Assembly: GCA_035221665.1 (NCBI GenBank)
Contig: CM069162.1
Coordinates: 16,182,001-16,246,000, forward strand
Source of the DNA: Okamejei kenojei
Taxonomy: Eukaryota
DNA: 64,000 nucleotides
Reading direction: 5' to 3'
The translations under genes were made by a program, and so were the position numbers. How positions within the stretch are numbered: the first letter of the stretch is position 1; every line of letters starts with the position of its first letter. Below the pieces are notes generated by a model. That model saw nothing but the letters and a program-made list of their open reading frames with translations, did not search any database and was not told the DNA's origin. This document shows, in pieces, positions 1,290 through 56,079 of this stretch.

Positions 1290-1660
1290 AGATAATAGAC
1301 AATAGGTGCAGACGTAGGCCGGTTGGCCCTTCTTGCCAGCACCGCCATTCAATGTGATCATGGCTGATAATCCCAAATCAGTACCCCGTTTCTGCCTTCT
1401 CCCCATATCCACTGGCTATTTTTAAGAGCCCTATCTAGCTCTCTCTTGAAAGCATCCAGTGAAACTGCCTCCACCGCCCTCTGAGGCGGAGAATTCCACA
1501 AACTCACCACTCTCAGTGAGAAAAAGTGTTTGCTCATCTCCATTCTAAATGGCTTACTCCTTATTCTTAAACTGTGGCCCCCTGGTTCTGGACTCCCCCA
1601 ACACCGGGAACATGTTTCCTTCCTCTAGCGTGTCCAAACCCTTAACAATCTTATATGTTT
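1290..1660 (-). mobile_element. Old CR1 3'-end fragment, present once per array unit (also about 5050, 6280, 13060, 19860, 23800, 27780)
   Basis: Translates to [12 protein letters not shown]...AFKRELD, followed by a CR1 3' UTR with a (ctattgt)n-like tail. Confidence 0.8.
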
Positions 1661-1804
1661 CAATATGTTTATGTTCCCAACTGAAGAAGGGTTCCGTTCA
1701 GAATCATCACCCAGCCATGTGCTCCAGAGATGATGCATGACCCACAGAGTTGCTCCAGCTTTTTGTCTTGTTGTATGTTCCTTGATAAGATGATAAATGT
1801 AGAC

Positions 1805-2079: not shown

Positions 2080-4349
2080 CAGGAGGTTTGGTAATATCAC
2101 CTAAAAGCAGAAACAAACAATTCAGTTATTTAACATTTGAAACATGTTCAGAGATAACAAATTTCAGTCAATACCTGCCCCATCAGTGAAAGAGTCTTAA
2201 GGAAGAGTCTTAAGTTAGACTTGAAAGCTTTGTAATGGAACTCCTGCTAACCTTGTCGGGCATTGCTTACATGCAGCAATATTTCTCTTCAGACCGCATC
2301 ACATACTCATGTACATCGTGACCTGCTCACACTCCCATCACACTATTCACTGTTCCGCCCATCACTTCACCTTTCTCTTCTTGTCCCATATTTGCATATA
2401 GGTGACAGTTGTCTCTCATCATCGCCATTGGTCCTGAACCCTTCCCATCTGTCGTCGTCACTCCCTCCTCAATAAAATCCCAGGTTTGTGAATTACCAGC
2501 TCCTCCCAAGTCCCAGAATCAGCCTCCAAAATTCATGTCTCGTTTCCCCTGGACCTCCACATGTCTCTCCCACCTCCTGCAATCAGGAATCATACGTGGC
2601 AGAATAATCAAATGACACTTCAGTGAGTCACAATCCTCAGTTGAAGAAGTGCAGCCAGAGGACCAGAGAAACGCAGAAGTCACTCCATTGTACATGAGAG
2701 GTGCAAAGATAATCCCCAAAATGACTGGCCTTTACAATGATTTCACAGATCAAACATAAAGTTGATGAGGGTACTCATGTTGCCTTCTAAAACATATATC
2801 GGAATATAAGATAAGAACCTAAGAATTAGGAGCAGGCTTCAGAGATTTGGCCCTAGGAACCTGTTCCATCATTCATTTAAATAATTGGCAATCTTCTACC
2901 ACAGAATCATTGTTCAACACTATCAATGTATCCTTTAATGTGCAGAAAATTAATCATCTCTTTTGATTGAACCTCCATTGCTCTCTGGAACGGAGGATTC
3001 TATACATTCAACAGCTTATTAGTGAAGAAATGATTCCTGTTTCAGTCCCAAATATCTTCATTCTATTCTGAGACCCGGTGCCTGTAATATGGACTCCTCA
3101 TGGAATGAGATAACTTCCCATTCCACAAATCTCTGGACAAAACAAATCAGGTCTAAAGAGGGTTCCTGACCCGAAACGTCACCATTCCCCGCTCTCCAGA
3201 TATCATGCCTAAGCCACTGAGTTGCTGCAGCGTTTTTTTTTTTTTTTTTTGTAAAACACCGTCTGTAGTTCTTTGTATCCCTAGTCTTTTCAACCTTTCC
3301 TCATGTGGTGAATCGCAATTTCTGTAACCTTTGCAGTGATACTTCCCTCCATGGTAGGCATAATTTATGTTCCTCGATAAGATGATAACTGCAGACAACT
3401 CTCGAGGTTCAGTCTCATCGAAGCCCCCATAATTGGTTGTAGCAGTTTTTTAACTAAATTATTATGAAGCGGACATTAAAACTAATTTGAGGAAGCTCTT
3501 AGAGAGCTTTGAAATTGCTGTATTTTTTGCACTGTTTATAATGTGAGGTCAATACTCACTTGGAGGTGTGGTAACATCACCTAAAAGCAGAAACAAACAA
3601 TGCAGTTAATTACTGGATCATTGGAAACATGTTCTGAATTAATCAATGTCATTCAATACCTGCCCCTTCTGTGGAAGAGTCAGCACACCACACCACACAT
3701 TGGCCTCATCAACCTCTTCAGACCCCAGAGTAGCAGAGAGGAGGCATGCAACCCTTCATCCCAAGGGACAGTCAAGAAAGTTTAATGAATGTTTAAGATT
3801 TGGTCAAATTTATTATAGGAAAGTAAGGAAATCAGCTAATAGAGAGCTAGGAGGAGGTAGTCGAGTAAAGGGTGAGCCGTGATTACAGTCAGAGTTGTCA
3901 TCAGCTCCACTCCTAATTCCGTAACTAATATTAACAAATAAAGTTTTACAATTGCCTCATACTCACAAAAGGAATCGGGGCAGGTGAATCGTATTCTGTA
4001 ATCTTGACATGAGCCATCACGTTGGTTGCTGTTCATACAAAAGAATCCAGTAGAAACGTTGCAACTGTTGAGTAGAATGTAGGGAGGTGTGATAAAGTAG
4101 TTAATAAAACTACTGATGCTCTTTGAATGAAATAATAAAAGTGCAATATTATGGCCGGCTATATTTTGTACCTGGCAATGTTCTCTCCAGTCTGTGAGGC
4201 CGGAATCCCTGACGTTGTCTCCACCTCACAGGCGATTGGATCCGTGCAGATCTGATCGGGATTTTCAGTTCGCAGATTGGGGAATATTTCATAGTCTCCA
4301 ATTCCTGATGGGTCATCACGGTCAAACCACGGAGTTTTGCAATTCCCTA
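2080..4349 (-). CDS. WxxW domain 7: exon A 4172-4349, exon B 3967-4064, micro-exons 3560-3580 and 2080-2100
   Basis: Intact 178/98/21/21-nt exons. Confidence 0.87.
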
Positions 4350-7300
4350 CTGAAGAGCAGAAAGAGAAAGTGGATTCAAAGTTTACATTGGGTCTTACAA
4401 ACCAGAAAGGGTTGTTGTGGAACTGTCAAGTGTCCAGTGACAAGAGTGTTTTATTGTCATACAGTATGTCCCAGATAGAACAATGCAATTGTTACTTGCA
4501 GCAGCAATATAGAAACAAGAAAAATGTTCAGACTCTATGATGGAACTAACATCACACAGGACGTTAATACGGGTACTCTAGTTCCTTCTAAAATGTAGAT
4601 CAGAATTTTAGATGAGAAAGTGAGAATTAGGAGCCGGAGTCATAGATAAAATGGGAAGATGAAAATAGAACAAGTTGCCCAACAACTTAGGCTGTGCACG
4701 CCACACAAAAGAGGAATGTAGGAGTCATAGATGTGGCCTTCAAAACCTGCTCCGCCATTGATCAAGATCACTGATAATTTACTAGGTCAGCCCTATTTTC
4801 TAGCATAAAAAAATCCTTTTTAACATCTGAAAAAAAAGTAATAATTTACTCAATATAGCTCAAATGATCTCTGGGAAGAAGAATTCCAAACAGTCCACCA
4901 CCATGTCTGAGTGAAGAAAACGGTCATATTTCAGTCCCAAAATACTTCTTCTTATTTCTGAGCCAGTGGTGTACACCTGAAGTCTTCAATGAGTGAGATA
5001 ATTTTCCATTCCGCAAATCCTTCAGAGAAAAAAGCAGTTCTCACTATAGACTAAACTGATAATAGACAGTAGGCCGGTTGGCCCTTCTTGACAGCACCGC
5101 CATTTAATGTGATCATGGCCTGATCATCCCAAATCAGTACCCCGTTCCTGCCTTCCCCCATATCCACTGGCTAATTTTTAAGAACCCTATCTAGCCTCTC
5201 TTGAAAGCATCCAGTGAAACTGCCTCCAACCCCTCTGAGGCGGTGAATTCCATAGACACCAATCTCTTCAGTGAGAAAATGTGTTTGTCATCTCCATTCT
5301 AAATGGCTTACTCCTATTCTTAAACTGTGGCCCCCTGGTTCTGGACTCCCCATCTTAAAAAGGGAGTTTCCTTCCTCTAGCGTGTCCAAACCTAAAACAA
5401 TCTTATATGTTTCAATATGATGTTCCCAACCTGAAGAAGGGTCCCCTGCTATTCAGAATTCATCACCCAGTATGTCTTCCAGAGATGATGCATGACCTAC
5501 AGAGTTGACTCCAAGCCTTTTTGTCTCTTTATTTAGAAAACATCTGCAGTTCTTTTATGTTCCCTGGTTATTTGTAATATATCCTTTGTAGAATCACAAT
5601 GTCTGCAACCAAACCAGTGATATAGTGATGTACGTTCTTTCCCAAACTGGAGAGCAATTGCAACAAAAGTTTTCATTGTCCCTCGGTACACGTGACAACA
5701 AATTAAACTAAACTAACTTCTAAACTGATCATACCCCCTTCTTTCAAGCACGAAGTATGTTCCTTGATAAGATGATAAATGTAGACAACACTCTTTGAAG
5801 AAGGGTCTCGACCCGAAACGCCTATCTCCTTTGCTCCTTTAGATGCTGCTGCACCCGCCAATTTGATTTCCCAGATGTTTGGGTTCCCTGATTTTCCATC
5901 TGCAAGTGTGAACCACCTGGTAGCTATCACTGGTGGAATTTCTCAACACACTGGGTGAAGTGGGTAAGAAGATTGATATCTATAATGCAAGGCCTATACT
6001 TACCAGGAGGTTTGGTAATATCACCTTAAAGCAGAAACAAACAATTCAGTTATTTAACATTTTAACAACTGAAAAAAAAGTAATAATTACTCAATATAGC
6101 TCAAATGATCTCTGGGAAGAAGAATTCCAAACAGTCACCACTGTCTGAGTGAAGAAAATGGTCATATTTCAGTCCCAAAATACCTTCTTCTTATTCTGAG
6201 CCAGTGGTGTATACACCTGAAGTCTTCAATGAGTGAGATAATTTTCCATTCCGCAAATCTCCAGAGAAAGCAGTTCTCAATAGACAACTGATAATAGACA
6301 GTAGGCCGGTTGGCCCTTCTTGTCAGCACCGCCATTTAATGTGATCATGGCTGATCATCCCAAATCAGTACCCCGTTCCTGCCTTCTCCCCATATCCACT
6401 GGCTATTTTTAAGAACCCTATCTTGCTCTCTCTTGAAAGCATCCAGTGAAACTGCCTCCACCGCCCTCTGAGGCGGAGAATTCCATAGACACCACTCTCA
6501 GTGAGAAAAAAAGTGTTTGCTCATCTCCATTCTAAATGGCTTACTCCTTATTCTTAAACTGTGGCCCCCTGGTTCTGGACTCCCCCAACATCGGGAACAT
6601 GTTTCTTCCTCTAGTGTCCAAACCCTTAACAATCTTATTTGTTTCAATATGTTTATGTTCCCAACTGAAGAAGGGTTCCGTTCAGAATCATCACCCCAGC
6701 CATGTGCTCCAGAGATGATGCATGACCCACAGAGTTGCTCCAGCTTTTTCTCTTATTTTAAACCAGCATCTGCAGTTCTTTGTATCCCTGGTTATTTAAA
6801 TATATCCTTACTGTATGTAGCAAATCACAATGTCTGCAACCAAACCAGTGATTATAGTGATGTATTGTCTTTCCCCAGACTGAGAGCATGCAACAAAAGT
6901 TTTTCATTGTTCGGTACACGTGACAACAAAGTAAACTAAACCTAAACTAATCTACTCCCCTTCATATTCAAGCACGAAAGTATGTTCCTTGATAAGATGA
7001 TAAATTGTAGACAACACTCGAGTTTGAAGAAGGGTGTCTCGACCCGAAACGTCGCCTATCTCCTGCTCCTTAGATGCTGCTGCACCCGCTGAGTTTCTCC
7101 AGATGTTTGTGTACCCTCGATTCTCCAGCATCTGCAGTTCCTTCTTTAACACTCGAGTTTCTGTCTCACTGAACACCTGGTAATCTGCAGTCACAGTTTT
7201 TGTAACTTACTATGAAGTGGAATTTACAACACACTGGGTGAAGTTGGGTAAGAAGATTGATATCTATAATGCAAGGCCTATACTTACCAGGAGGTTTGGT

Positions 7301-10300
7301 AATATCACCTGAAAGCAGAAACAAACAATTCAGTTATTTAACATTTGAAACATGTTCAGAGATAACAAATTTCAGTCAATACCTGCCCCATCAGTGAAAG
7401 AGTCTTAAGGAAGAGTCTTAAGTTAGACTTGAAAGCTTTGTAATGGAACTCCTGCTAACCTTGTCGGGCATTGCTTACATGCAGCAATATTTATCTTCAG
7501 ACCGCATCACATACTCATGTACATCGTGACCTGCTCCCACTCCCTTCACACTATTCACTGTTCCGCCCATCACTTCACCTTTCTCTTCTTGTCCCATATT
7601 TCCTGCTATTGGTGACAGTTGTCTCTCATCATCGCCATTGGTCCTGAACCCTTCCCATCTGTCGTCGTCACTCCCCTCCTCAATAAAATCCCAGGTTTGT
7701 GAATTACCAGCTCCTCCCAAGTCCCAGAATCAGCCTCCAAAATTCATGTCTCGTTTCCCCTGGACCTCCACATGTCTCTCCCACCTCCTGCAATCAGGAA
7801 TCATACGTGGCAGAATAATCAAATGACACTTCAGTGAGTCACAATCCTCAGTTGAAGAAGTGCAGCCAGAGGACCAGAGAAACGCAGGTCACTCCATTGT
7901 ACATGAGAGGGGCAAAGATAATCCCAAAAATGACTGGCCTTTACAATGATTTCACAGATCAAACATAAAGTTGATGAGGGTACTCATGTCGCCTTCTAAA
8001 ACATATATCGGCATATAAGATAAGAACCTAAGAATTAGGAGCAGGCTTCAGAGATTTGGCCCTAGGAACCTGCTCCATCATTCATTTAATTAATTGGCAA
8101 TCTTCTACCACAGATTCATTGTTCAACACTATCAACGTATCCTTTAATGTGCAGAAAATTAATCATCTCTTCTGATTGAACCTCCATTGCTCTCTGGAAC
8201 GGAGGATTCTATACATTCAACAGCTTATTAGTGAAGAAATGAGTCCTGTTTCAGTCCCAAATATCTTCATTCTATTCTGAGACACCGGTGCCTGTAATAT
8301 GGAGTCCTCATGGAACGAGATAACTTCCCATTCCACAAATCTCTGGACAAAACAAATCATGTCTAAAGAGGGGTCCTGACCCGAAACGTCACCATTCCCC
8401 GCTCTCCAGATATCATGCCTAAGCCACTGAGTTGCTCCAGCATTTTGTTTCTTTTTTTGTAAAACACCGTCTGTAGTTCTTTGTATCCCTAGTCTTTTCA
8501 ACCTTTCCTCATGTGGTGAATCGCAATTTCTGTAACCTTTCCAGTGATACTTCCCTCCATGGTAGGCATAATTTATGTTCCTCGATAAGTTGATAACTGC
8601 AGACAACTCTCGAGGTTCAGTCTCATCGAAGCCCCCATAATTGGTTGTAGCAGTTTTTTAACTTAATTATTATGAAGCGGACATTAAAAACTAATTTGAG
8701 GAAGCTCTTAGAGAGCTTTGAAATTGCTGTATTTGTTGCACTGTTTATAATGTGAGGCCAATACTCACTTGGAGGTGTGGTAACATCACCTAAAAGCAGA
8801 AACAAACAATGCAGTTAATTACTGGATCATTGGAAACATGTTCTGAACTAATCAATGTCATTCAATACCTGCCCCTTCTGTGGAAGAGTCAGCACACCAC
8901 ACCACACATTGGCCTCATCAACCTCTTCAGACCCCAGAGTAGCAGAGAGGAGGCATGCAACGCTTCATCCCAAGGGACAGTCAAGAAAGTTTAATGAATG
9001 TTTAAGATTGGGTCAAATTTATTATAGGAAAGTAAGGAAATCAGCTAATAGAGAGCTAGGAAGAGGTAGCCGAGTAAAGGGTGAGCTGTGATTACAGTCA
9101 GAGTTGTCATCAGCTCCACTCCTAATTCCGTAACTAATATTAACAAATAAAGTTTTACAATTGCCTCATACTCACAAAAGGAATTGGGGCAGGTGAATCG
9201 TATTCTGTAATCTTGACATGAGCCATCACGTTGGTTGCTGTTCATACAAAAGAATCCAGTAGAAACGTTGCAACTGTTGAGTAGAATGTAGGGAGGTGTG
9301 ATAAAGTAGTTGATAAAACTACTGATGCTCTTTGAATGAAATAATAAAAGTGCAATATTATGGCCGGCTATGTTTTGTACCTGGCAATGTTCTCTCCAGT
9401 CTGTGAGGCCGGAATCCCTGACGTTGTCTCCACCTCACAGGCGAGTGGATCCGTGCAGATCTGACCGGGATTTTCAGTTCGCAGATTGGGGAATACTTCA
9501 TAGTCTCCAATTCCTGATGGGTTATCACGGTCAAACCACGGAGTTTTGCAATTCCCTACTGAAGAGCAGAAAGAGAAAGTAGATTCAAAGTTTACATTGG
9601 TGCTTACAAACCAGAAAGGGTTGTTGTGGAACTGTCAAGTGTCCAGTGACAAGAGTGTTTTATTGTCATACAGTATGTCCCAGATAGAACAATGCAATTG
9701 TTACTTGCAGCAGCAATATAGAAACAAGAAAAATGTTCAGACTCTATGATGGAACTAACATCACACAGTTAATACGGGTACTCTAGTTCCTTCTAAAATG
9801 TAGATCAGAATTTTAGATGAGAAAGTGAGAATTAGGTGCAGGAACATAATCAAACGGAAGATAGAAACATAGAAACATAGAAATTATGCAGGAGTAGGCC
9901 ATTCGGCCTTCGAGCCTGCACCGCCATTCAATATGATTCATGGCTGATCATCCACTCAGTATCCCGTACCTGCCTTCTCTCCATACCCTCTGATCCCCTT
10001 AGCCACCAGGGCCACATCTAAACTCCCTCTTAAATATAGCAATGAACTGGCCTCAACTACCCTCTGTGGCAGAGAGTTCCAGAGACTCACCACTCTCTGT
10101 GTGAAAAAAGTCTTTCTCATCTCGGTCTTAAATGGATTTCCCCCTTATCCTTAAGCTGTGACCCTTGTCCTGGACTTCCCCAACATCGGGAACAATCTTC
10201 CTGCATCTAGCCTGTCCAACCCCTTAAGAATTTTGTAAGTTTCTATAAGATCCCCTCTCAATCTCCTAAATTCTAGAGAGTATAAACCGAGTTTATCCAG

Positions 10301-13300
10301 TCTTTCTTCATAAGACAGTCCTGCCATCCCAGGAATCAGTCTGGTGAACCTTCTCTGCACCCCCTCTATGGCAATAATGTCCTTCCTCAGATTTGGAGAC
10401 CAAAACTGTATGCAATACTCCAGGTGTGGTCTCACCAAGACCCTGTACAACTGAAGTAGAACCTCCCTGCTCCTATACTCAAATCCTTTTGCTATGAAAA
10501 CTAACATACCATTCGCTTTTTTCACTGCCTGCTGCACCTGCATGCTTACTTTCAATGACTGGTGTACCATGACACCCAGGTCTCGCTGCATCTCCCCTTT
10601 TTCCTAATCGGCCACCATTTAGATAATAGTCTGCTTTCCTGTTTTTGCAAAAGTGGATAACCTCACATGTATCCACATTATACTGCATCTGCCAAACATT
10701 TGCCCACTCACCCAGCCTATCCAAGTCACCTTGCTGTCTCCTAGCATCCTCCTCACAGCTAACACTGCCCCCCTTAGTGTCATCCGCAAACTTGGAGATA
10801 TTGCCTTCAATTCCCTCATCCAGATCATTAATATATATTGTAAATAGCTGGGGTTCCAGCACTGAGCCCTGCGGTACCCCCACTAGTCACTGCCTGCCAT
10901 TGTGAAAAGGACCCGTTTACTCCTACTCTTGGCGTCCTGTTTGCCAGCCAGTTCTCTATCCACATCAATACTGAACCCCTAATGCTGTATGCTTTAAGTT
11001 TGTATACTAATCTCTTATGTGGGACCTTGTCGAAAGCCTTCTGGAAGTCCAGATATACCACATCCACTGGTTCTCCCTTATCCACGCTATAGTTACATTC
11101 TCGAAAAATTCGATTCATCAGACATGATTTACCTTTCATAAATCCATGCTGACTTTGTCCAATGATTTCACCACTTTCCAAATGTGCTGTTATCCCATCT
11201 TTAATAACTGACTCTTAGCAGTTTCCCCACTACCGATGTTAGACTAACTGGTCTGTAATTCCCGTTTTCTCTCTCCCTCCCATCTTAAAAAGAGGGGTTA
11301 CGTTTGCTACCCGCCAGTCCTCAGGAACTACTCCAGAATCTAAAGAGTTTTGAAAGATTATCACTAATGCATCCACTATTTCCTGAGCTACTTCCTTAAG
11401 TACTCTGGGATGCAGCCTATCTGGCCCTGGGAATTTATCGGCCTTTAACCTATTCAATTTATCCAACACCACTTCCCGACTAACCTGGATTGCACTCAAT
11501 TCCTCCTTTGACCCGCGGTCCCCTGCTATTTCCGGCAGATTATTTATGTCTTCCTTAGTGAAGACGGAACCAAAGTAGTTACTCAATTGGTCCGCCATAT
11601 CCTTGTTCCCCATGATCAACTCACCTGTTTCTGACTGCAAGGGACCTACATTTATTTTAACTAATCTCTTTCTCTTCACATATCTATAAAAACTTTTGCA
11701 GTCAGTTTTTATGTTCCCTGCCAGTTTTCTTTCATAATCTATTTTTCCTTTCCTAATTAAGCCCTTTGTCCTCCTCTGCTGGTCTCTGAATTTCTCCCAG
11801 TCCTCTGGTATGCTGTTTTTTCTGGCTTTGCTTTGTTACCAACCCTGATTTCCCTTGTTATCCACGGATGCACTACCTTCCCCGATTTATTCTTTTGCCA
11901 AACTGGGATGAACAATTTTTGTAGTTCATCCATGCAGTCTTTAAATGTTTTCCATTGTATATCCACCGTCAACCCTTTTAGAATTAATTGCCAGTCAATC
12001 TTGGCCAATTCACGTCTCATACCCTCAAAGTTACCTTTCTTTAAGTTCAGAACCATTGTTTCTGAATTAACAATGTCACTCTCCATCCTAATGAAGAACT
12101 CAACCATATTATGGTCACTCTTGCCCAAGGGAGCACGTACAACAAGACTGCTAACTATCCCTTCATCATTACTCAAAACCCAGTCTAAAATAGCCTGCTC
12201 TCTCGTTGGTTCCTCTACATGTTGATTTAGATAACTATCCCGCATACATTCCAAAAATCCTCTTCCTCAGCACCCCTGCCAATTTGATTAACCCAATCTA
12301 TATGTAGATTAAAGTCACCCATTATAACTGTTCTGCCTTTGTCGCATGCATTTGTAATTTCCTGTTTGATACCATCCCCAACTTCACTGCTACTGTTAGG
12401 TGGCCTGTACACAACACCCACCAGGGTTTTCTGCCCCTTAGTGTTTTGCAGCTCTACCCATACCGATTCCACATCCTCCAAGCTAATGTCCTTCCTTTCC
12501 ATTGCGGTAATCTCCTCTCTAACCAGCAATGCTCCCCACCTCCTTTTCCTTTCTCTCTATCCCTCCTGAATATTGAATATCCCTGGATGTTCAATCCCAG
12601 CCTACTTCACCCTGGAGCCATGTCTCCGTGATCCCAACTATATCATAATCATTAATATCTATCTGCACGTTAGCTGAGTAAGATGAAATAGAACGTCCAA
12701 CAACTTTAGGCTGTGCACGCCACACGAAAGAAGAAAAAGGAGTCATAGATGTGGCCTTCAAACCTGCTCCGCCATTGATCAAGTTCACTGATAATTTACT
12801 AGGTCAGCCCTATTTTTGAGCACTATTAATATATCCTTTTAACGACTGAAAAACAAGGAATAATTACTCAATATAGCTCAAATGCTCTCTGGGAAGAAGA
12901 ATTCCAAACAGTCACCACCGTCTGAGTGAAGAAAATTGTCATATATCAGTCCCAAAATATCTTCTTCTTATTCTGAGCCAGTGGTGTGTACACCTGAAGT
13001 CCTCAATGAGTGAGATAATTTTCCATTCCACAAATCTCCAGAGAAAACAGTTCTTAATAGACAACAGATAATAGACAATAGGTGCAGAAGTAGGCCGGTT
13101 GGCCCTTCTTGCCAGCACCGCCATTCAATGTGATCATGGCTGATCATCCCAAATCAGTACCCCGTTTCTGCCTTCTCCCCATATCCACTGGCTATTTTTA
13201 AGAGCCCTATCTAGCTCTCTCTTGAAAGCATCCAGTGAAACTGCCTCCACCGCCCTCTGAGGCGGAGAATTCCATAGACACCACTCTCAGTGAGAAAATG

Positions 13301-22300: not shown

Positions 22301-25300
22301 TATAATGTGAGGCCAATACTCACTTGGAGGTGTGGTAACATCACCTAAAAGCAGAAACAAACAATGCAGTTAATTACTGGATCATTGGAAACATGTTCTG
22401 AACTAATCAATGTCATTCAATACCTGCCCCTTCTGTGGAAGAGTCAGCACACCACACCACACATTGGCCTCATCAACCTCTTCAGACCCCAGAGTAGCAG
22501 AGAGGAGGCATGCGACCCTTCATCCCAAGGGACAGTCAAGAAAGTTTAATGAATGTTTAAGATTGGGTCAAATTTATTATAGGAAAGTAAGGAAATCAGC
22601 TAATAGAGAGCTAGGAAGAGGTAGCCGAGTAAAGGGTGAGCTGTGATTACAGTCAGAGTTGTCATCAGCTCCACTCCTAATTCCGTAACTAATATTAACA
22701 AATAAAGTTTTACAATTGCCTCATACTCACAAAAGGAATCGGGGCAGGTGAATCGTATTCTGTAATCTTGACATGAGCCATCACGTTGGTTGCTGTTCAT
22801 ACAAAAGAATCCAGTAGAAACGTTGCAACTGTTGAGTAGAATGTAGGGAGGTGTGATAAAGTAGTTGATAAAACTACTGATGCTCTTTGAATGAAATAAT
22901 AAAAGTGCAATATTATGGCCGGCTATATTTTGTACCTGGCAATGTTCTCTCCAGTCTGTGAGGCCGGAATCCCTGACGTTGTCTCCACCTCACAGGCGAG
23001 TGGATCCGTGCAGATCTGATCGGGATTTTCAGTTCGCAGATTGGGGAATATTTCATAGTCTCCAATTCCTGATGGGTTATCACGGTCAAACCACGGAGTT
23101 TTGCAATTCCCTACTGAAGAGCAGAAAGAGAAAGTAGATTCAAAGTTTACATTGGGTCTTACAAACCAGAAAGGGTTGTTGTGGAACTGTCAAGTGTCCA
23201 GTGACAAGAGTGTTTTATTGTCATACAGTATGTCCCAGATAGAACAATGCAATTGTTACTTGCAGCAGCAATATAGAAACAAGAAAAATGTTCAGACTCT
23301 ATGATGGAACTAACATCACACAGGACGTTAATACGGGTACTCTAGTTCCTTCTAAAATGTAGATCAGAATTTTAGATGAGAAAGTGAGAATTAGGAGCCG
23401 GAGTCATAGATCAAATGGAAGATGAAATAGAACAAGTTGCCCAACAACTTTAGGCTGTGCACGCCACACAAAAGAAAAAGTAGGAGTCATAGATGTGGCC
23501 TTCAAAACCTGCTCCGCCATTGATCAAGATCACTGATAATTTACTAGGTCAGCCCTATTTTCTAGCAATATAAATATATCCTTTTAACGACTGAAAAACA
23601 AGTAATAATTACTCAATATAGCTCAAATGATCTCTGGGAAGAAGAATTCCAAACAGTCACCACTGTCTGAGTGAAGAAAATGGTCATATTTCAGTCCCAA
23701 AATACCTTCTTCTTATTCTGAGCCAGTGGTGTATACACCTGAAGTCTTCAATGAGTGAGATAATTTTCCATTCCGCAAATCTCCAGAGAAAAACAGTTCT
23801 CAATAGACAACTGATAATAGACAGTAGGCCGGTTGGCCCTTCTTGTCAGCACCGCCATTTAATGTGATCATGGCTGATCATCCCAAATCAGTACCCCGTT
23901 CCTGCCTTCTCCCCATATCCACTGGCTATTTTTAAGAACCCTATCTAGCTCTCTCTTGAAAGCATCCAGTGAAACTGCCTCCACCGCCCTCTGAGGCGGA
24001 GAATTCCATAGACACCACTCTCAGTGAGAAAATGTGTTTGCTCATCTCCATTCTAAATGGCTTACTCCTTATTCTTAAACTGTGGCCCCCTGGTTCTGGA
24101 CTCCCCCAACATCGGGAACATGTTTCCTTCCTCTAGCGTGTCCAAACCCTTAACAATCTTATATGTTTCAATATGTTTATGTTCCCAACTGAAGAAGGGT
24201 TCCGTTCAGAATCATCACCCAGCCATGTGCTCCAGAGATGATGCATGACCTACAGAGTTGCTCCAGCTTTTTGTCTCTTATTTTAGAAACCAGCATCTGC
24301 AGTTCTTTGTATCCCTGGTTATTTAAATATATCCTTACTGTATGTAGCAAATCACAATGTCTGCAACCAAACCAGTGATATAGTGATGTATTGTCTTTCC
24401 CCAGACTGGAGAGCATGCAACAAAAGTTTTTCATTGTCCCTCGGTACACGTGACAACAAAGTAAACTAAACTAAACTAAACTAATCTACTCCCCTTCATT
24501 TCAAGCACGAAGTATGTTCCTTGATAAGATGATAAATGTAGACAACACTCGAGTTTGAAGAAGGGTCTCCACCCGAACGTCGCCTATCTCCTTTGCTCCT
24601 TAGATGCTGCTGCACCCGCTGAGTTTCTCCAGATGTTTGTGTACCCTCGATTTTCCAGCATCTGCAGTTCCTTCTTTAACACTCGAGTTTCTGTCTCACT
24701 GAACACCTGGTAATCTGCAGTCGCAGTTTTTGTAACTTACTATGAAGTGGAATTTACAACACACTGGGTGAAGTTGGGTAAGAAGATTGATATCTATAAT
24801 GCGAGGCCTATACTTACCAGGAGGTTTGGTAATATCACCTAAAAGCAGAAACAAACAATTCAGTTATTTAACATCTGAAACATGTTCAGAGATAACAAAT
24901 TTCAGTCAATACCTGCCCCATCAGTGAAAGAGTCTTAAGGAAGAGTCTTAAGTTAGACTTGAAAGCGTTGTAATGGTACTCCTGCTAACCTTGTCGGGCA
25001 TTGCTTACATGCAGCAATATTTCTCTTCAGACTGCATCACATACTCATGTACATCGTGACCTGCTCACACTCCCTTCACCCTATTCACTGTTCCGCCCAT
25101 CACTTCACCTTTCTCTTCTTGTCCCATATTTCCTGCTATTGGTGACAGTTGTCTCTCATCATCGCCATTGGTCCTGAACCCTTCCCATCTGTCGTCGTCA
25201 CTCCCTCCTCAATAAAATCCCAGGTTTGTGAATTACCAGCTCCTCCCAAGTCCCAGAATCAGCCTCCAAAATTCATGTCTCGTTTCCCCTGGACCTCCAC

Positions 25301-28300
25301 ATGTCTCTCCCACCTCCTGCAATCAGGAATCATACGTGGCAGAATAATCAAATGACACTTAAGTGAGTCACAATCCTCAGTTGAAGAAGTGCAGCCAGAG
25401 GACCAGAGAAACGCAGGTCACTCCATTGTACATGAGAGGGGCAAAGATAATCCCAAAAATGACTGGCCTTTACAATGATTTCACAGATCAAACATAAAGT
25501 TGATGAGGGTACTCATGTTGCCTTCTAAAACATATATCGGAATATAAGATAAGAACCTAAGAATTAGGAGCAGGCTTCAGAGATTTGGCCCTAGGAACCT
25601 GCTCCATCATTCATTTAATTAATTGGCAATCTTCTACCACAGATTCATTGTTCAACACTATCAACGTATCCTTTAATGTGCAGAAAATTAATCATCTCTT
25701 CTGATTGAACCTCCATTGCTCTCTGGAACGGACGTTTCTATACATTTCAACAGCTTATTAGTGAAGAAATGAGTCCTGTTTCAGTCCCAAATATCTTCAT
25801 TCTATTTCTGAGACACCGGTGCCTGTAATATGGAGTCCTCATGGAATGAGATAACTTCCCATTCCACAAATCTCTGGACAAAACAATTCAGGTCTAAAGA
25901 GGGATCCTGACCCGAAACGTCACCATTCCCCGCTCTCCAGATATCATGCCTAAGCCACTGAGTTGCTCCAGCATTTTGTTTCTTTTTTTGTAAAACACCG
26001 TCTGTAGTTCTTTGTATCCCTAGTCTTTTCAACCTTTCCTCATGTGGTGAATCGCAATTTCTGTAACCTTTCCAGTGATACTTCCCTCCATGGTAGGCAT
26101 AATTTATGTTCCTCGATAAGATGATAACTGCAGACAACTCCCGGGGTTCAGTCTCATCAAAGCCCCCATAATTGGTTGTAGCAGTTTTTTAACTTAATTA
26201 TTATGAAGCGGACATTAAAAACTAATTTGAGGAAGCTCTTAGAGAGCTTTGAAATTGCTGTATTTGTTGCACTGTTTGTAATGTGAGGCCAATACTCACT
26301 TGGAGGTGTGGTAACATCACCTAAAAGCAGAAACAAATAATACAATTAATTACTGGATCATTGGAAACATGTTCTGAATTAATCAATGTCATTCAATACC
26401 TGCCCCTTCTGTGGAAGAGTCAGCACACCACACCACACATTGGCCTCATCAACCTCTTCAGACCCCAGAGTAGCAGAGAGGAAGCATGCAACGCTTCATC
26501 CCAAGGGACAGTCAAGAAAGTTTAATGAATGTTTAAGATTGGGTCAAATTTATTATAGGAAAGTAAGGAAATCAGCTAATAGAGAGATAGGAAGAGGTAG
26601 CCGAGTAAAGGGTGAGCTGTGATTACAGTCAGAGTTGTCATCAGCTCCACTCCTAATTCCGTAACTAATATTAACAAATAAAGTTTTACAATTGCCTCAT
26701 ACTCACAAAAGGAATCGGGGCAGGTGAATCGTATTCTGTAATCTTGACATGAGCCATCACGTTGGTTGCTGTTCATACAAAAGAATCCAGTAGAAACGTT
26801 GCAACTGTTGAGTAGAATGTAGGGAGGTGTGATAAAGTAGTTGATAAAACTACTGATGCTCTTTGAATGAAATAATAAAAGTGCAATATTATGGCCGGCT
26901 ATGTTTTGTACCTGGCAATGTTCTCTCCAGTCTGTGAGGCCGGAATCCCTGACGTTGTCTCCACCTCACAGGCGAGTGGATCCATGCAGATCTGACCGGG
27001 GTTTTCAGTTCGCAGATTGGGGAATATTTCATAATCTCCAATTCCTGATGGGTTATCACGGTCAAACCACAGAGTTTTGCAAATCCCTACTGAAGAGCAG
27101 AAAGAGAAAGTAGATTCAAAGTTTACATTGGGTCTTACAAACCAGAAAGGGTTGTTGTGGAACTGTCAAGTGTCCAGTGACAAGAGTATTTTATTGTCAT
27201 ACAGTATGTCCCAGATAGAACAATGCAATTGTTACTTGCAGCAGCAATATAGAAACAAGAAAAATGTTCAGACTCTATGATGGAACTAACATCACACAGG
27301 ACGTTAATACGGGTACTCTAGTTCCTTCTAAAATGTAGATCAGAATTTTAGATGAGAAAGTGAGAATTAGGAGCCGGAGTCATAGATCAAATGGAAGATG
27401 AAATAGAACAAGTTGCCCAACAACTTTAGGCTGTGCACGCCACACAAAAGAAAAAAGTAGGAGTCATAGATGTGGCCTTCAAAACCTGCTCCGCCATTGA
27501 TCAAGATCACTGATAATTTACTAGGTCAGCCCTATTTTCTAGCAATATAAATATATCCTTTTAACGACTGAAAAACAAGTAATAATTACTCAATATAGCT
27601 CAAATGATCTCTGGGAAGAAGAATTCCAAACAGTCACCACTGTCTGAGTGAAGAAAATGGTCATATTTCAGTCCCAAAATACCTTCTTCTTATTCTGAGC
27701 CAGTGGTGTATACACCTGAAGTCTTCAATGAGTGAGATAATTTTCCATTCCGCAAATCTCCAGAGAAAACAGTTCTCAATAGACAACTGATAATAGACAG
27801 TAGGCCGGTTGGCCCTTCTTGTCAGCACCGCCATTTAATGTGATCATGGCTGATCATCCCAAATCAGTACCCCGTTCCTGCCTTCTCCCCATATCCACTG
27901 GCTATTTTTAAGAACCCTATCTAGCTCTCTCTTGAAAGCATCCAGTGAAACTGCCTCCACCGCCCTCTGAGGCGGAGAATTCCATAGACACCACTCTCAG
28001 TGAGAAAATGTGTTTGCTCATCTCCATTCTAAATGGCTTACTCCTTATTCTTAAACTGTGGCCCCCTGGTTCTGGACTCCCCCAACATCGGGAACATGTT
28101 TCCTTCCTCTAGCGTGTCCAAACCCTTAACAATCTTATATGTTTCAATATGTTTATGTTCCCAACTGAAGAAGGGTTCCGTTCAGAATCATCACCCAGCC
28201 ATGTGCTCCAGAGATGATGCATGACCTACAGAGTTGCTCCAGCTTTTTGTCTCTTATTTTAGAAACCAGCATCTGCAGTTCTTTGTATCCCTGGTTATTT

Positions 28301-31300
28301 AAATATATCCTTACTGTATGTAGCAAATCACAATGTCTGCAACCAAACCAGTGATATAGTGATGTATTGTCTTTCCCCAGACTGGAGAGCATGCAACAAA
28401 AGTTTTTCATTGTCCCTCGGTACACGTGACAACAAAGTAAACTAAACTAAACTAAACTAATCTACTCCCCTTCATTTCAAGCACGAAGTATGTTCCTTGA
28501 TAAGATGATAAATGTAGACAACACTCGAGTTTGAAGAAGGGTCTCGACCCGAAACGTCGCCTATCTCCTTTGCTCCTTAGATGCTGCTGCACCCGCTGAG
28601 TTTCTCCAGATGTTTGTGTACCCTCGATTTTCCAGCATCTGCAGTTCCTTCTTTAACACTCGAGTTTCTGTCTCACTGAACACCTGGTAATCTGCAGTCG
28701 CAGTTTTTGTAACTTACTATGAAGTGGAATTTACAACACACTGGGTGAAGTTGGGTAAGAAGATTGATATCTATAATGCGAGGCCTATACTTACCAGGAG
28801 GTTTGGTAATATCACCTAAAAGCAGAAACAAACAATTCAGTTATTTAACATTTGAAACATGTTCAGAGATAACAAATTTCAGTCAATACCTGCCCCATCA
28901 GTGAAAGAGTCTTAAGGAAGAGTCTTAAGTTTGACTTGAAAGCGTTGTAATGGAACTCCTGCTAACCTTGTCGGGCATTGCTTACATGCAGCAATATTTC
29001 TCTTCAGACCGCATCACATACTCATGTACATCGTGACCTGCTCCCACTCCCTTCACCCTATTCACTGTTCCGCCTATCACTTCACCTTTCTCTTCTTGTC
29101 CCATATTTCCTGCTATTGGTGACAGTTGTCTCTCATCATCGCCATTGGTCCTGAACCCTTCCCATCTGTCGTCGTCACTCCCTCCTCAATAAAATCCCAG
29201 GTTTGTGAATTACCAGCTCCTCCCAAGTCCCAGAATCAGCCTCCAAAATTCATGTCTCGTTTCCCCTGGACCTCCACATGTCTCTCCCACCTCCTGCAAT
29301 CAGGAATCATACGTGGCAGAATAATCAAATGACACTTCAGTGAGTCACAATCCTCAGTTGAAGAAGTGCAGCCAGAGGACCAGAGAAACGCAGAAGTCAC
29401 TCCATTGTACATGAGAGGGGCAAAGATAATCCCCAAAATGACTGGCCTTTACAATGATTTCACAGATCAAACATAAAGTTGATGAGGGTACTCATGTTGC
29501 CTTCTAAAAACATATATCGGAATATAAGATAAGAACCTAAGAATTAGGAGCAGGCTTCAGAGATTTGGCCCTAGGAACCTGCTCCATCATTCATTTAATT
29601 AATTGGCAATCTTCTACCACAGATTCATTGTTCAACACTATCAACGTATCCTTTAATGTGCAGAAAATTAATCATCTCTTCTGATTGAACCTCCATTGCT
29701 CTCTGGAACGGAGGATTCTATACATTCAACAGCTTATTAGTGAAGAAATGAGTCCTGTTTCAGTCCCAAATATCTTCATTCTATTCTGAGACACCGGTGC
29801 CTGTAATATGGAGTCCTCATGGAATGAGATAACTTCCCATTCCACAAATCTCTGGACAAAACAATTCAGGTCTAAAGAGGGATCCTGACCCGAAACATCA
29901 CCATTCCCCGCTCTCCAGATATCATGCCTAAGCCACTGAGTTGCTCCAGCATTTTGTTTCTTTTTTTGTAAAACACCGTCTGTAGTTCTTTGTATCCCTA
30001 GTCTTTTCAACCTTTCCTCATGTGGTGAATCGCAATTTCTGTAACCTTTCAAGTGATACTTCCCTCCATGGTAGGCATAATTTATGTTCCTCGATAAGAT
30101 GATAACTGCAGACAACTCCCGAGGTTCAGTCTCATCGAAGCCCCCATAATTGGTTGTAGCAGTTTTTTAACTTAATTATTATGAAGCGGACATTAAAACT
30201 AATTTGAGGAAGCTCTTAGAGAGCTTTGAAATTGCTGTATTTGTTGCACTGTTTGTAATGTGAGGCCAATACTCACTTGGAGGTGTGGTAACATCACCTA
30301 AAAGCAGAAACAAATAATACAATTAATTACTGGATCATTGGAAACATGTTCTGAATTAATCAATGTCATTCAATACCTGCCCCTTCCGTGGAAGAGTCAG
30401 CACACCACACCACACATTGGCCTCATCAACCTCTTCAGACCCCAGAGTAGCAGAGAGGAAGCATGCAACGCTTCATCCCAAGGGACAGTCAAGAAAGTTT
30501 AATGAATGTTTAAGATTGGGTCAAATTTATTATAGGAAAGTAAGGAAATCAGCTAATAGAGAGATAGGAAGAGGTAGCCGAGTAAAGGGTGAGCTGTGAT
30601 TACAGTCAGAGTTGTCATCAGCTCCACTCCTAATTCCGTAACTAATATTAACAAATAAAGTTTTACAATTGCCTCATACTCACAAAAGGAATCGGGGCAG
30701 GTGAATCGTATTCTGTAATCTTGACATGAGCCATCACGTTGGTTGCTGTTCATACAAAAGAATCCAGTAGAAACGTTGCAACTGTTGAGTAGAATGTAGG
30801 GAGGTGTGATAAAGTTGTTGATAAAACTACTGATGCTCTTTGAATGAAATAATAAAAGGCTATATATTGTACCTGGCAATGTTCTCTCCAGTCAGTGAGG
30901 CCGGAACCCCTGACGTTGTCTCCACCTCACAGGCGAGTGGATCCGTGCAGATCTGATCGGGATTTTCAGTTCGCAGATTGGGGAATATTTCATAATCTCC
31001 AATTCCTGATGGGTCATCACGGTCAAACCACGGAGTTTTGCAACACCCTACTGAGGAGAAGAAAGAGAGAGTAGATTGAAAGTGAACATTGGGTCGGTTA
31101 AACCTGAAAGCTATATAATGGAACTGCTGCCATCTATGTTGGGCATAACTTGCATGTACCAATATTTCCCTGCAGAATGCATCACACACTCTTGTACATG
31201 AGACCCAGCTCCAGATCCCTTCAGCTAATTCCCTGTTCTGCCCATCACATCACTTTCCTCTTCTTGAGCCACATTTTCTGATATTGGTGACTGTTTCCTC

Positions 31301-34300: not shown

Positions 34301-36189
34301 CAATTATGTCATTGTCAGTATCTTCTTCTGTAGCTAATATTAACAAAAGAAGTTTTACAATTGCCCCATACTCACAAAAAGAATCAGGGCAGGTGAATCG
34401 TATTCTGTAATCTTGACAGGCGAGATCAAGTTGGTTGCTGTTCACACAAAAGAACCCAGTAGAAGCATTGCAACTGTTGATCAGAATGTAGAGAGGCGAG
34501 ATAAAGTAGTTGTTAAAACCATTGCTGCTCTTTGAATAAAATAATAGAAGTGCAATAATATGGCCGACTATATTTTGTACCTGACGAAGTTCTCTCCAGT
34601 CTGTGAGGCCGGAACCCCTTTTGTGGTTTCTACCTCACAGGCAATTGGTTTAGTGCAGATGCGACCGGGACTTTCCTTTTGCAGATCGGCGAGGAGTTCA
34701 TAATCTCCATCTCCTGATGGGTCATCACGGTCAAACCACTCAGTTTTGCAACAGACTGCTTCTGAAGAGACAAAGGAAAAAGTAAATTAAATTTAAACAT
34801 TTGATCTGATTGACCTGAAAGCTTTGAACGGAACAGCTGCAGACGTTGACAGGCATAGCTTACAACGTAGCAAAATTTCCCTTCAAATGCATCACAAACT
34901 CTTGTACAAGAAAACTGGCTCCAACCCCCTCTACCCATTTACCTTTTCTGCCCATCACTTTATTTTTCTTGCCCACTTTATGTTTCCTCTCACCTTCCTA
35001 ACTGGTCCAGACACAATCATATCTGTCGTCATCAATCAACTCCATGTGAAGTAAATTACCAGCTCATGTTAGGTCCCAGTTTGTGCCTGTAGGGGCCCTT
35101 TGAACTATTTCATATTGGATCAGCCCGATCGACGGTTTGTAAAACCGGTTAACAATCAAAATTGATCACTTGAATTGATTAATATATAGGACACACTTGT
35201 TGCAGCTTTATGCAGCTTTGATGTTGGAGTGAAAATTTGCTCTATTTAGAATGGAATTGATATACTCACTGTGAAATCCAGTAACATAATCTAAAAGCAA
35301 ACAATTGTTGTAATTATAATTTGAATGGTTCTCAGAATTAATTTTAAAAAGTTTGTAAATGTTACAATGCAAGCGGAAATACTTACTGTTGGTGCAGAGT
35401 TTAACAATAGTTATAAATACCTAGGATCAAACAAAGATATTAGTAAAGCTACATCTCGATATAGCTGTCGTAAAAAAATGCAAGTGAGAGTACCCAAGTT
35501 TCGCAATAATAATCTGTTGCAATTTTGTAATCTCTTTCAGATATCTTGAGAATATCACCTGTAATAATTTAATAAATTAGAATTGATATACGTCCAAAAA
35601 AGTGACCTGGGATATAATTACCCATCCCAGTCATTGTTGAATAAAAGTTACTCTACTGTAGGCTCGTGGTACTGCACCCTGCCTTTGTCCTCGACATTTT
35701 ATTGTCATGCAGTGTAGAGTCATACAAAAAGAGGCACTTTGGCTCACCATATCCACACCAACCATCAAATATCTAACTCTACTCATCCCATTTACCACCA
35801 CTTGGTCCATGTGCCTTAATGATTCAACTGTCCATTTAGATACTTCTGAATTGTTGTAAGTGCCTCTGCCTCCACCACCATCTCAGGCAGTGCATTCCAG
35901 TTTTCAACTATGCTCTTGTGAGAAGAGTTCTTCCTGACATCCCCTGCAACAAGGGTCTTGACCCGAAACGTCACCCATTCCTTCCCTCCAGAGATGCTGC
36001 CTGTCCCGCTGAGTTACTCCAGCATTTTGTGTCTATCCCCTATAAACGTCTTGACTAAAATCAAAAACTTTGGGGAAAGGTTTCCTCCTTGTAAATAGTT
36101 TCTGAAGAAACCGTAGATGGAAAATGAACGTTTTACCTTTGTCTCTCTTGACTGAACATTGATAAACTTACCAAAAATGCTTTAACCAT
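2080..36189 (-). CDS. Multi-exon gene for a putative secreted protein built of tandem WxxW/CysD-like (mucin/CILP-type) domains; 3' end probably lies beyond the left edge of the window
   Basis: Canonical GT-AG exons join in frame. Leader: 36172-36189, 35387-35420, 35270-35290. Then repeated exon A (178/181 nt, phase 1-2), exon B (98 nt, phase 2-1) and 21-nt micro-exons (phase 1-1). Spliced unit: [106 protein letters not shown] (318 nt, 106 aa). The W-F-D-x-D-x-P-S-G-x-G-D-Y-E, G-F-x-C-x-N and C-x-D-Y-x-(I/V)-R-F-x-C motifs are typical of Mucin2_WxxW domains. Confidence 0.88.
7288..9558 (-). CDS. WxxW domain 6: exon A 9381-9558, exon B 9176-9273, micro-exons 8769-8789 and 7288-7308 (extra micro-exon copy at 6004-6024)
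   Basis: Intact 178/98/21/21-nt exons. Confidence 0.87.
9861..12678 (-). mobile_element. 5'-truncated CR1-clade LINE (ORF2 APE + RT, frameshifted)
   Basis: RT motifs [22 protein letters not shown] and KFADDT; CR1 C-terminus RPHLEYC...[13 protein letters not shown]; 3' tail (ctatgttt)n. Confidence 0.95.
14086..16337 (-). CDS. WxxW domain 5: exon A 16159-16337 (179 nt, +1 frameshift), exon B 15955-16052, micro-exons 15548-15568 and 14086-14106
   Basis: Same exon structure, but exon A reads tggTTTTgac versus tggTTTgac in all other copies (extra base at about 16311-16314). Confidence 0.75.
16639..19467 (-). mobile_element. 5'-truncated CR1-clade LINE (ORF2 APE + RT, frameshifted)
   Basis: As above (ORFs 16540..17139, 17140..17667, 18204..18662, 19016..19384); identical junctions to the 9.9-12.7 kb copy. 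Confidence 0.95.
20860..23113 (-). CDS. WxxW domain 4: exon A 22936-23113, exon B 22731-22828, micro-exons 22324-22344 and 20860-20880
   Basis: Intact 178/98/21/21-nt exons with GT-AG boundaries. Confidence 0.87.
24818..27089 (-). CDS. WxxW domain 3: exon A 26912-27089, exon B 26707-26804, micro-exons 26300-26320 and 24818-24838
   Basis: Intact 178/98/21/21-nt exons; variant [14 protein letters not shown]...PGQICMDP. Confidence 0.87.
28795..31050 (-). CDS. WxxW domain 2: exon A 30873-31050, exon B 30684-30781, micro-exons 30277-30297 and 28795-28815
   Basis: [60 protein letters not shown]; partly visible in ORF 30860..31189; canonical splice sites. Confidence 0.88.
31557..32195. mobile_element. 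Non-autonomous PIF/Harbinger-type MITE
   Basis: TIRs agcccctgtcctacttaggc / gcctaagtggggcaggccct; TTA target duplication at 31554-31556 and 32196-32198; internal cgac-rich subrepeats; the homologous intron site is empty in the array units. Confidence 0.8.
32310..32492 (-). mobile_element. CR1 3'-UTR fragment
   Basis: agaaacatagaaac tail plus a 3' UTR matching the CR1 copies. Confidence 0.75.
32678..33470 (-). mobile_element. Unclassified ~800-bp interspersed repeat (retroposon-like, simple-repeat tail); family copies at 46695-48390 and 62923-63755
   Basis: Shared blocks cacattcc..tgtgatggaaggc, gaaaaaaatcgcatctc and ccccccacataaaacaa, with (cataat)n or (aatac)n ends; no coding motif recognised. 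Confidence 0.6.
34008..34761 (-). CDS. WxxW domain 1 (divergent): exon A 34581-34761, exon B 34376-34473, micro-exon 34008-34028
   Basis: Spliced translation [99 protein letters not shown]; all boundaries GT-AG. Confidence 0.88.
35270..35290 (-). CDS. 21-nt leader micro-exon (N-YVTGFH)
   Basis: tttgcttttag|attatgttactggatttcaca|gtgagt; same length, phase and acceptor context as the linker micro-exons. Confidence 0.65.
35387..35420 (-). CDS. Leader exon 2 ([11 protein letters not shown]), hydrophobic core of the putative signal peptide
   Basis: tttgtttgatcctag|gtatttataactattgttaaactctgcaccaaca|gtaagt; 34 nt, phase 0 to 1. Confidence 0.55.
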
Positions 36190-36201
36190 TCTGTTCAAAT
36201 T
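36172..36201 (-). CDS. First coding exon (ATG at 36189, MVKAFL) of the WxxW-repeat gene
   Basis: ttttcttttccag|aatttgaacagaATGgttaaagcatttttg|gtaagt gives a strong acceptor and donor; phase 0 matches the next exon. Confidence 0.6.
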
Positions 36202-40610: not shown

Positions 40611-40614
40611 AGAA

Positions 40615-56055: not shown

Positions 56056-56079
56056 AGGTGACTGTCCCCCGTAATGGGT

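Follow-up and report, generated by a model that had tools for sequence, protein, structure and literature searches.

We analysed a 64,000-nt stretch of the genome of the skate Okamejei kenojei (GenBank assembly GCA_035221665.1, contig CM069162.1, positions 16,182,001 to 16,246,000 of the forward strand; hereafter the window), which holds on its minus strand, from 36201 to 2080, the 5' part of a gene encoding a chain of cysteine-rich CysD domains. Three small N-terminal exons of consistent size and phase (E1, 30 nt; E2, 34 nt; E3, 21 nt) are followed by seven CysD units, each composed of an A and a B exon, and by Pro/Thr linker microexons (Table 1). All 31 mapped exons carry an AG acceptor and a GT donor. 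Exon A is 178 nt long (181 nt in unit 1) with phase 1-2, exon B is 98 nt with phase 2-1, and the linker exons C and D are 21 nt each with phase 1-1. There is a single linker exon in unit 1 and a pair in each of units 2-5 and 7, while unit 6 may have three. Since the A+B module is flanked by phase 1 on both sides and the linkers are symmetric, the addition or loss of a whole unit leaves the frame intact. The seven A+B units are the only domains between E3 and the window edge, and the C-terminus lies outside the window. Linkers in the window measure only 7-21 residues, so the observation of the first-pass annotation, made from the letters of the window, that a long proline/threonine/serine (PTS) exon is missing from it is borne out. 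The same annotation proposed that an N-terminus and at least seven domains splice in frame. The N-terminus, the linkers and the seven A+B units are indeed present; the spliced frame as assembled is stop-free for 442 codons, up to unit 5, and contains only four of the domains because of an extra T in exon A5. The exons and the gene are real, beyond chance, given the splice signals, the hidden Markov model (HMM) matches, the 91-93% identity to skate proteins and a ratio of non-synonymous to synonymous change (dN/dS) of about 0.5 for unit 1 against the other units.

Because E1 is preceded by a splice acceptor, there must be another exon 5' of it. This exon was not located; a strong donor-like site near 36394 (minus strand), ~190 nt upstream of E1, is only a candidate for the place where a 5' non-coding exon ends. 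Each D exon is followed by a possible 23-nt exon with AG..GT ends; it was rejected, as it breaks the frame and has no homolog match at that place.

Table 1 Exons and associated features of the CysD gene in the window.
Feature	Position	Strand	Description	Support
E1	36172..36201	-	12-nt leader, ATG at 36189, first 6 codons of putative signal peptide	same start in skate P0022 and sawfish P0008
E2	35387..35420	-	34 nt, hydrophobic core of putative signal peptide	11/11 residues identical in P0022
E3	35270..35290	-	microexon, 21 nt, phase 1-1	matching residues in P0022
A1	34581..34761	-	181 nt, N-terminal two-thirds of CysD 1	splice ends, PF13330
B1	34376..34473	-	98 nt, C-terminal third of CysD 1	splice ends, PF13330
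C1	34008..34028	-	21-nt Pro/Thr linker microexon, sole linker of unit 1	
A2	30873..31050	-	178 nt	splice ends, PF13330
B2	30684..30781	-	98 nt	splice ends, PF13330
C2	30277..30297	-	linker microexon	
D2	28795..28815	-	linker microexon, duplicate of C type	
A3	26912..27089	-	178 nt	
B3	26707..26804	-	98 nt	
C3	26300..26320	-	linker microexon	
D3	24818..24838	-	linker microexon	
A4	22936..23113	-	178 nt	
B4	22731..22828	-	98 nt	
C4	22324..22344	-	linker microexon	
D4	20860..20880	-	linker microexon	
LINE, first copy	16655..19470	-	in intron D4-A5; endonuclease and reverse transcriptase fragments, broken frames	
A5	16159..16337	-	179 nt, extra T in T run, frameshift as assembled	
B5	15955..16052	-	98 nt	
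C5	15548..15568	-	linker microexon	
D5	14086..14106	-	linker microexon	
LINE, second copy	9877..12680	-	same intron site (D5-A6), 95.9% identical to first	
A6	9381..9558	-	178 nt	
B6	9176..9273	-	98 nt	
C6	8769..8789	-	linker microexon	
D6	7288..7308	-	linker microexon	
D6b	6004..6024	-	extra linker copy, weak AAG acceptor, in frame if used or skipped	
A7	4172..4349	-	178 nt	splice ends, PF13330
B7	3967..4064	-	98 nt	
C7	3560..3580	-	linker microexon	
D7	2080..2100	-	linker microexon, last exon in window	
Intron after D7	1..1768	-	holds third LINE copy (from about 899), cut by window edge	
B-donor read-through stretches	34238-34375 and matching intron starts after B2-B7 (e.g. 30555-30683)	-		

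All five exon translations tested matched PF13330 (Mucin2_WxxW) at 29-40 bits against a gathering cut-off of 22.4, with the A exons covering profile positions 2-57 and the B exons 59-88, and the profile check proposed in the first-pass annotation thus supports its assignment to the WxxW/CysD family. Its literal motif is missing, as the first Trp is replaced by Lys in all six in-frame units. This Trp is absent from 104/104 elasmobranch and 16/16 carp and loach domains and present in 38 of 53 spiny-rayed fish domains, so a literal WxxW does not define the fish family; with its loss the consensus C-mannosylation site is also absent. Cysteines occupy domain positions 3, 34, 68, 78 and 87 in 6/6 in-frame units and in 16/16 carp and loach domains. 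There are eight cysteines per unit, and nine in units 1 and 2, where an extra adjacent cysteine lies at the start of A1 (34750-34753) and A2 (31040-31043), as it does in the Amblyraja radiata protein P0022; this residue is a candidate for an inter-domain or inter-chain disulfide. The cysteines at positions 40 and 60, found in all units, are invariant in elasmobranchs, nearly absent from bony-fish and squamate members, and align with mucin CysD cysteines. They probably form one disulfide retained in cartilaginous fishes. Asp11, Asp18 and Glu20, 98-100% conserved in all groups, are candidate calcium ligands; a literature search found no residue list for the calcium ligands of CysD.

A structure prediction, also suggested at first pass, points the same way. 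An AlphaFold model of P0022, the 91%-identical relative (block-mean predicted local distance difference test score 77-93 over the domain), retrieved mucin CysD-containing chains in the top 8 rows of a Foldseek search, with a template-modelling score of about 0.7 over single-domain targets, and all eight matches of a PDB sequence search were mucins. The domain is thus predicted to adopt the CysD beta-sandwich fold. A two-copy complex prediction of one domain (P0022 residues 26-118) scored 0.02, which gives no verdict and was not used either way. The putative signal peptide, judged by hydropathy alone, reaches a best 8-residue value of 3.26, compared to 2.89-3.39 in six relatives. The protein is probably a secreted CysD-only chain lacking a VWD/C8/TIL part, as first proposed.

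A search with exon A1 matched 26 of 33 candidates, all of them with PF13330 and none listing VWD, C8 or TIL. Shark and ray proteins lead these matches, and three elasmobranch proteins among them are named si:dkey-205h13.2. Unit 1 is 91% identical to P0022 of Amblyraja radiata and unit 4 is 93% identical to P0004 of Leucoraja erinacea; identities to CILP and CEMIP domains are 38-44% and 40-51%, respectively. A profile search returned 294 matches, and the 120 listed, none with VWD/C8/TIL, include bichir, gar, bowfin, sturgeon, teleosts, coelacanth, salamanders, a caecilian, squamates and invertebrate CysD-rich proteins. The family ranges over sharks, rays, a chimaera, ray-finned fishes, coelacanth, amphibians and lizards. 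Squamate CysD-only relatives (P0031-P0034, P0116, P0137, P0175 and P0193) include some with long Pro/Thr spacers. In an IQ-TREE phylogeny of 96 domain rows and 88 columns (up to three domains per named protein, with unnamed matches and mucin CysD left out), units 1 and 4, both units tested, fall in a chondrichthyan clade (100/98) among shark si:dkey-205h13.2 domains. This clade is nested in a jawed-vertebrate CysD-only clade (96/83), together with Danio aesculapii and carp si:dkey-205h13.2, which excludes CILP, CEMIP and the invertebrates. With 88 columns and no mucin CysD, the tree demonstrates family membership and not strict orthology.

The window therefore very probably contains the 5' part of a skate member of the fish 'Mucin-5AC' (si:dkey-205h13.2) family, and the gene is probably the ortholog of si:dkey-205h13.2. 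The fish 'Mucin-5AC' (formerly si:dkey-205h13.2) is described as carrying 2-27 CysD domains and neither VWD nor PTS (Ma et al. 2025, PMC11765562). The gene is known in kind, belonging to a published family with a tested zebrafish function, and is not a new kind of protein. The first-pass description of it as lineage-specific does not hold for a family that extends from sharks to lizards, nor was it hidden, as a skate member already stands in Table 1 of PMC11765562. The same paper lists an A. radiata record with 27 domains and a catshark record with 19; the former (XP_032903886) was not among the 80 matches listed in a search of 1061-3378-residue proteins. No host gene neighbours were recognised within the 64-kb window. 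Like the fish 'Mucin-5AC' of PMC11765562, the window gene has a hydrophobic N-terminus, tandem CysD domains only, no VWD, a variable domain number, five core cysteines and the same tree placement. Unlike it, the window gene has 21-nt microexon Pro/Thr linkers between N-terminal domains, near-identical units amplified together with their introns, and an additional two conserved cysteines in each domain, which other cartilaginous fishes have as well.

The analysis yields a complete 5' exon map of a gene that the skate database models cut short or misname. P0022 ('CILP1-like', 163 aa) follows E1-B1, with 91% identity over domain 1, but continues past the B1 donor into intronic sequence (79 aa at 84%) and then stops. 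P0004 (1037 aa) starts with linkered domains; unlike the window gene it begins mid-domain without the N-terminus, has single linkers and carries 10 linkerless domains beyond. The suspicion that the gene is mis-annotated is thus justified for both of these truncated relatives. Two Hypanus sabinus models, P0014 and P0019, of which one has the N-terminus and a PTS-like stretch and the other the terminal domain, are possibly one gene split in two.

The units form an array that is visible in self-comparison from about 31 kb to the left window edge; the first copy, at 33.5-35 kb, has diverged further. Successive A exons are spaced 3711, 3961, 3976, 6776, 6779 and 5209 nt apart. The 4-kb tandem unit of the first-pass annotation is thus correct as a tandem exon-intron repeat, although its period varies between 3.7 and 6.8 kb and in some units includes a copied long interspersed nuclear element (LINE). 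The long periods are explained by this ~2.8-kb LINE, carried at one shared intron site in three units, with the third copy (1-899) cut by the window edge. As the two complete copies are 95.9% identical, the LINE was most simply inserted once and then duplicated with the unit, and the third copy implies at least an eighth unit further left. Units differ by 0.4-2.6% over A..C (99.6% identity between units 4 and 5), and structurally by LINE presence, 16-17-nt deletions and the extra linker. These observations support growth of the N-terminal domain count by tandem duplication of the exon-intron unit. Unequal crossing-over, an established mechanism, would have amplified the ~4-kb unit, and the LINE would have landed once and been copied along with it. 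Domain number in this family thus changes by duplication of a phase-symmetric exon-intron unit whose copying history is marked by a LINE. The proposal that domain number equals the copy number of the unit applies only to the N-terminal block, as relatives carry further linkerless domains. The LINE copies may serve as a marker for the order of unit duplications, and identity patterns that differ between segments of the array suggest mosaic units.

Short Pro/Thr/Ala linkers between N-terminal domains are found in 6/6 multi-domain ray and skate models and in 0/7 shark models (P0001, P0002, P0003, P0010, P0011, P0024 and P0104); shark P0018, whose model departs from the domain pattern, was set aside. 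Linkerless domains follow the linkered ones in four of the six batoid models, and in Mobula there is only a terminal one. In sawfish, gap lengths of 14 and 28 residues are consistent with steps of 7 residues, and a stingray model contains a ~340-residue PTS-like stretch (57% Thr/Ser/Pro). A microexon origin of the linkers is seen only in the window gene. The linkered domains of batoids form a weakly supported group (0.80) and cluster by species, a pattern that recent amplification would produce. Since a goby and squamates have Pro/Thr spacers too, this trait has evolved repeatedly. A literature search found no report of batoid linkers, and a ray and skate N-terminal block spaced by microexon linkers, here amplified as a whole exon-intron unit, seems to be unreported. 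The last domains of sharks and rays cluster (0.998 in one tree, 100/94 in IQ-TREE). From this terminal-domain clade and the linkerless run of the relatives, we predict that the gene would continue to the left with more units, then about 10 linkerless domains and the conserved last domain, for a total of perhaps about 17 domains or more.

Three alternatives to this gene model were weighed. If the exons were the middle of a conventional gel-forming mucin, or of CILP, this would account for the CysD domain and fold in common, for database names such as 'mucin-5AC', 'mucin-2-like' and 'CILP1-like', and for an E1 that has an acceptor and a frame open upstream of the ATG. Gel-forming mucins are defined by N-terminal VWD-C8-TIL units and a long PTS (PMC4948705). 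None of the 145 upstream minus-strand stop-free segments of at least 45 aa between 36.2 and 64 kb matched VWD, C8 or TIL, in a scan that left out shorter exons, the plus strand and most of a 23-bp minisatellite; the first-pass statement that the window lacks such a region stands on this scope, and relatives begin at the same hydrophobic N-terminus. VWD/C8/TIL is likewise absent from the 26 exon A1 matches and from the 120 profile matches listed. MUC2, MUC5AC and MUC5B (PDB 6TM6, 8OER and 8OV0) share with the window gene the domain family, the fold and a conserved acidic D-x-D..GD-x-E stretch, whereas the window gene is without VWD-C8-TIL or a long PTS, has its first Trp replaced and splits the domain over two exons. 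The MUC2 CysD has ten cysteines in five intramolecular disulfides (PMC3195396), compared to 8-9 cysteines in the window units, and complete relatives end directly after the last CysD, in contrast to the C-terminal cystine knot of gel-forming mucins. CILP and CEMIP each contain one PF13330 domain inside a large multi-domain protein (in CILP followed by TSP1/Ig and CILP-specific domains; the CILP matches carry other Pfam domains), retain the first Trp and sit on separate branches outside the CysD-only clade, unlike the seven tandem domains of the window. The window gene is neither a gel-forming mucin nor CILP, and a reading as the middle of either is hardly tenable.

An assembly artefact, with fewer units expanded or haplotype copies mixed, is very improbable as the origin of all or part of the array. 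The near-identity of units 4 and 5 and 1-bp indels suggestive of noisy long reads would fit such an artefact; the 0.4-2.6% and structural differences among units, the 95.9% identity of the LINE copies and a similar block of near-identical linkered domains in Mobula argue against it. The frameshift in unit 5, which the first-pass annotation missed, requires separate consideration. One extra T in a T run makes exon A5 (16337-16159) 179 nt long, so that the assembled frame stops at codon 452 with four CysD units in frame, not seven. When units 3-7 are aligned over ~2.8 kb, unit 5 shows 4 private 1-bp indels but fewer private substitutions (7) than any of the others. This excess of indels over substitutions, together with the identity of A5 to A4 apart from the extra T, suggests that the frameshift is most likely an assembly or consensus error, and we flag it as such. 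The alternative is a genuine frameshift in a drifting block; unless A5+B5 were skipped, this allele would yield a four-domain product of 451 residues or be lost to nonsense-mediated decay. A single event fits the neutral background: 0.75-0.83 small private indels per kb of non-coding sequence (hand count) predict 1.2-1.3 coding indels, so one frameshift cannot separate an error from relaxed selection or drift. Nor is there a purifying signal among the young units 2, 3, 4, 6 and 7, which show 11 non-synonymous and 2 synonymous variant codons (site ratio 210:62; few changes, unit 5 left out). For unit 1 compared to units 2, 3, 4, 6 and 7, dN/dS is 0.49-0.57 (one-sided p about 0.04-0.05 in two non-independent pairs), and its divergence from the younger units is 0.17 in exons and 0.22-0.24 in introns (one-sided p 0.02-0.05 for constraint). 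All 31 splice sites are intact and skipping A5+B5 keeps the frame, leaving 675 stop-free codons, so the gene could stay functional; taken with the consensus-error pattern of unit 5, a genuine frameshift appears quite improbable.

The tested function of the family comes from zebrafish. There, neuromast support cells express the gene, and mutation shortens the cupula (to 38.2 um, from 47.4 um) and slows the startle (PMC11765562); the gene also serves as a support-cell marker (PMC7806267). A full-text literature search by gene identifier returned only these two papers. The general mucus or matrix cross-linker role of the first-pass annotation is thus not supported, the only tested function being in the lateral-line cupula. 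We consider it reasonably probable that the window gene as a whole is the skate fish-'Mucin-5AC' gene, with amplified units, and encodes a component of the cupula gel; the cupula role in skate, by analogy with zebrafish, has about the same moderate probability on its own. Lateral-line support cells would secrete the CysD chain as a structural part of the cupula gel. Non-covalent dimerisation (PMC3195396) and the binding of two Ca ions (PMC7599080) are known for the MUC2 CysD; by comparison with mucin CysD, disulfide-stabilised and probably Ca-binding domains would provide many weak non-covalent stickers per chain, and O-glycosylated Thr/Pro linkers would space the N-terminal CysD beads as in mucins. 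The exon structure, domain identity, family placement and tandem amplification come from the present analysis; secretion, tissue and self-association we infer. Were the gene expressed in skate neuromasts or ampullae, it would be a direct candidate for the protein scaffold, so far little known, of sensory gels in elasmobranchs, and its copy number could then be related to cupula mechanics.

Several points, including the indel background and the absent purifying signal among young units, weigh against this explanation. Orthology rests on 88-column domain trees, from which mucin CysD is missing, and on database names, and a Lys shortens the hydrophobic core of the putative signal peptide. CysD-only relatives occur in lizards and snakes; squamates lack a lateral line, so function can shift. 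The functional evidence is from zebrafish only, where the protein was not seen in the cupula directly (PMC11765562), and literature searches for skate or shark expression of the gene found nothing for any cartilaginous fish. The same gene and architecture might provide a multivalent cross-linker mainly for another secreted gel of the skate (ampullary jelly, skin or gill mucus, egg jelly), an idea close to that of the first-pass annotation. Consistent with it are the persistence of the family in squamates, the size of elasmobranch members (up to 18-21 domains vs typically 4-6 in bony fishes), and two cases in which CysD chains act in gels: Oikosin 1 of Oikopleura, a secreted tandem chain of 13 CysD proposed to be the major structural part of the tunicate mucous house (PMC3195396), and a 12-copy CYS transgene that strengthens mouse gut mucus (PMC4431476). 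The skate gene is a natural counterpart of such engineered poly-CysD mucus stiffeners. The invertebrate CysD-only proteins tested (Saccoglossus, Patella, Clavelina and amphioxus) fall outside the vertebrate clade. Proteinase K abolishes the viscosity of ampullary gel, whose structural proteins are reported as unidentified (PMC8379299). Set against another gel is the zebrafish larval expression, described as exclusive to neuromasts (PMC11765562). A shark skin-mucus proteome (PMC10707392) does not contain '205h13', 'mucin-5AC' or 'WxxW' in the part of its text and supplement covered, a name search and thus weak. A paddlefish lateral-line-enriched gene list (PMC5429088) has 0 'WxxW', 'MUC5' or 'CILP' terms in a name search of the part available, with two of three 'mucin' rows seen; it was counted against a main role in another gel and equally fails to support the cupula there. 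Overall, we regard a main role in another gel as rather unlikely and favour the cupula.

Combining these lines, batoids may have rebuilt mucin-like spacers in a VWD-free CysD chain by means of 21-nt microexons, with the copy number of the frame-safe 4-kb cassette of the skate tuning how multivalent and how closely meshed a sensory gel is (the cupula, possibly also the electrosensory ampullary jelly); we offer this as a clearly unlikely proposal. In its boldest form, read-through of the B donor to a nearby AATAAA would give shorter isoforms with a hydrophobic tail that anchors the gel to the cell surface. Past each B donor there are 43-46 open hydrophobic codons (7/7 units, which are homologous copies and not independent), with an AATAAA 4 or 24 nt from the start of the read-through stop codon in 7/7 units. 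The A. radiata database model ends within the B1 read-through stretch. However, a stretch of 43 open codons is found at 9-13% of control positions, and reading past the C and D donors also gives 32-72 codons in most units. A hydrophobic tail after exon B was accordingly kept as a lead only and not as a real terminal exon; the read-through could be due to chance, or could represent an isoform that is polyadenylated within the intron and ends in a membrane tail.

Other elements lie outside the gene. A 23-bp GC-rich minisatellite at 47092-48157 (46 copies, 95% matches) adjoins a repeat element and has long open frames on both strands. At 55200-59500 on the minus strand there is a degenerate element with a tyrosine-recombinase N-terminal domain match just under the Pfam cut-off (PF02899) and reverse transcriptase/RNase H-like fragments, which we take to be a DIRS-type retrotransposon. 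A 169-codon frame at 40603-41112 (plus strand), with a Cys-Cys motif, a C-terminal hydrophobic stretch and no Pfam match, resembles a fragment of the transmembrane part of a retroviral envelope. Remnants of a different LINE, with a weak zf-RVT match below cut-off, are located at 39463-40221 on the plus strand.

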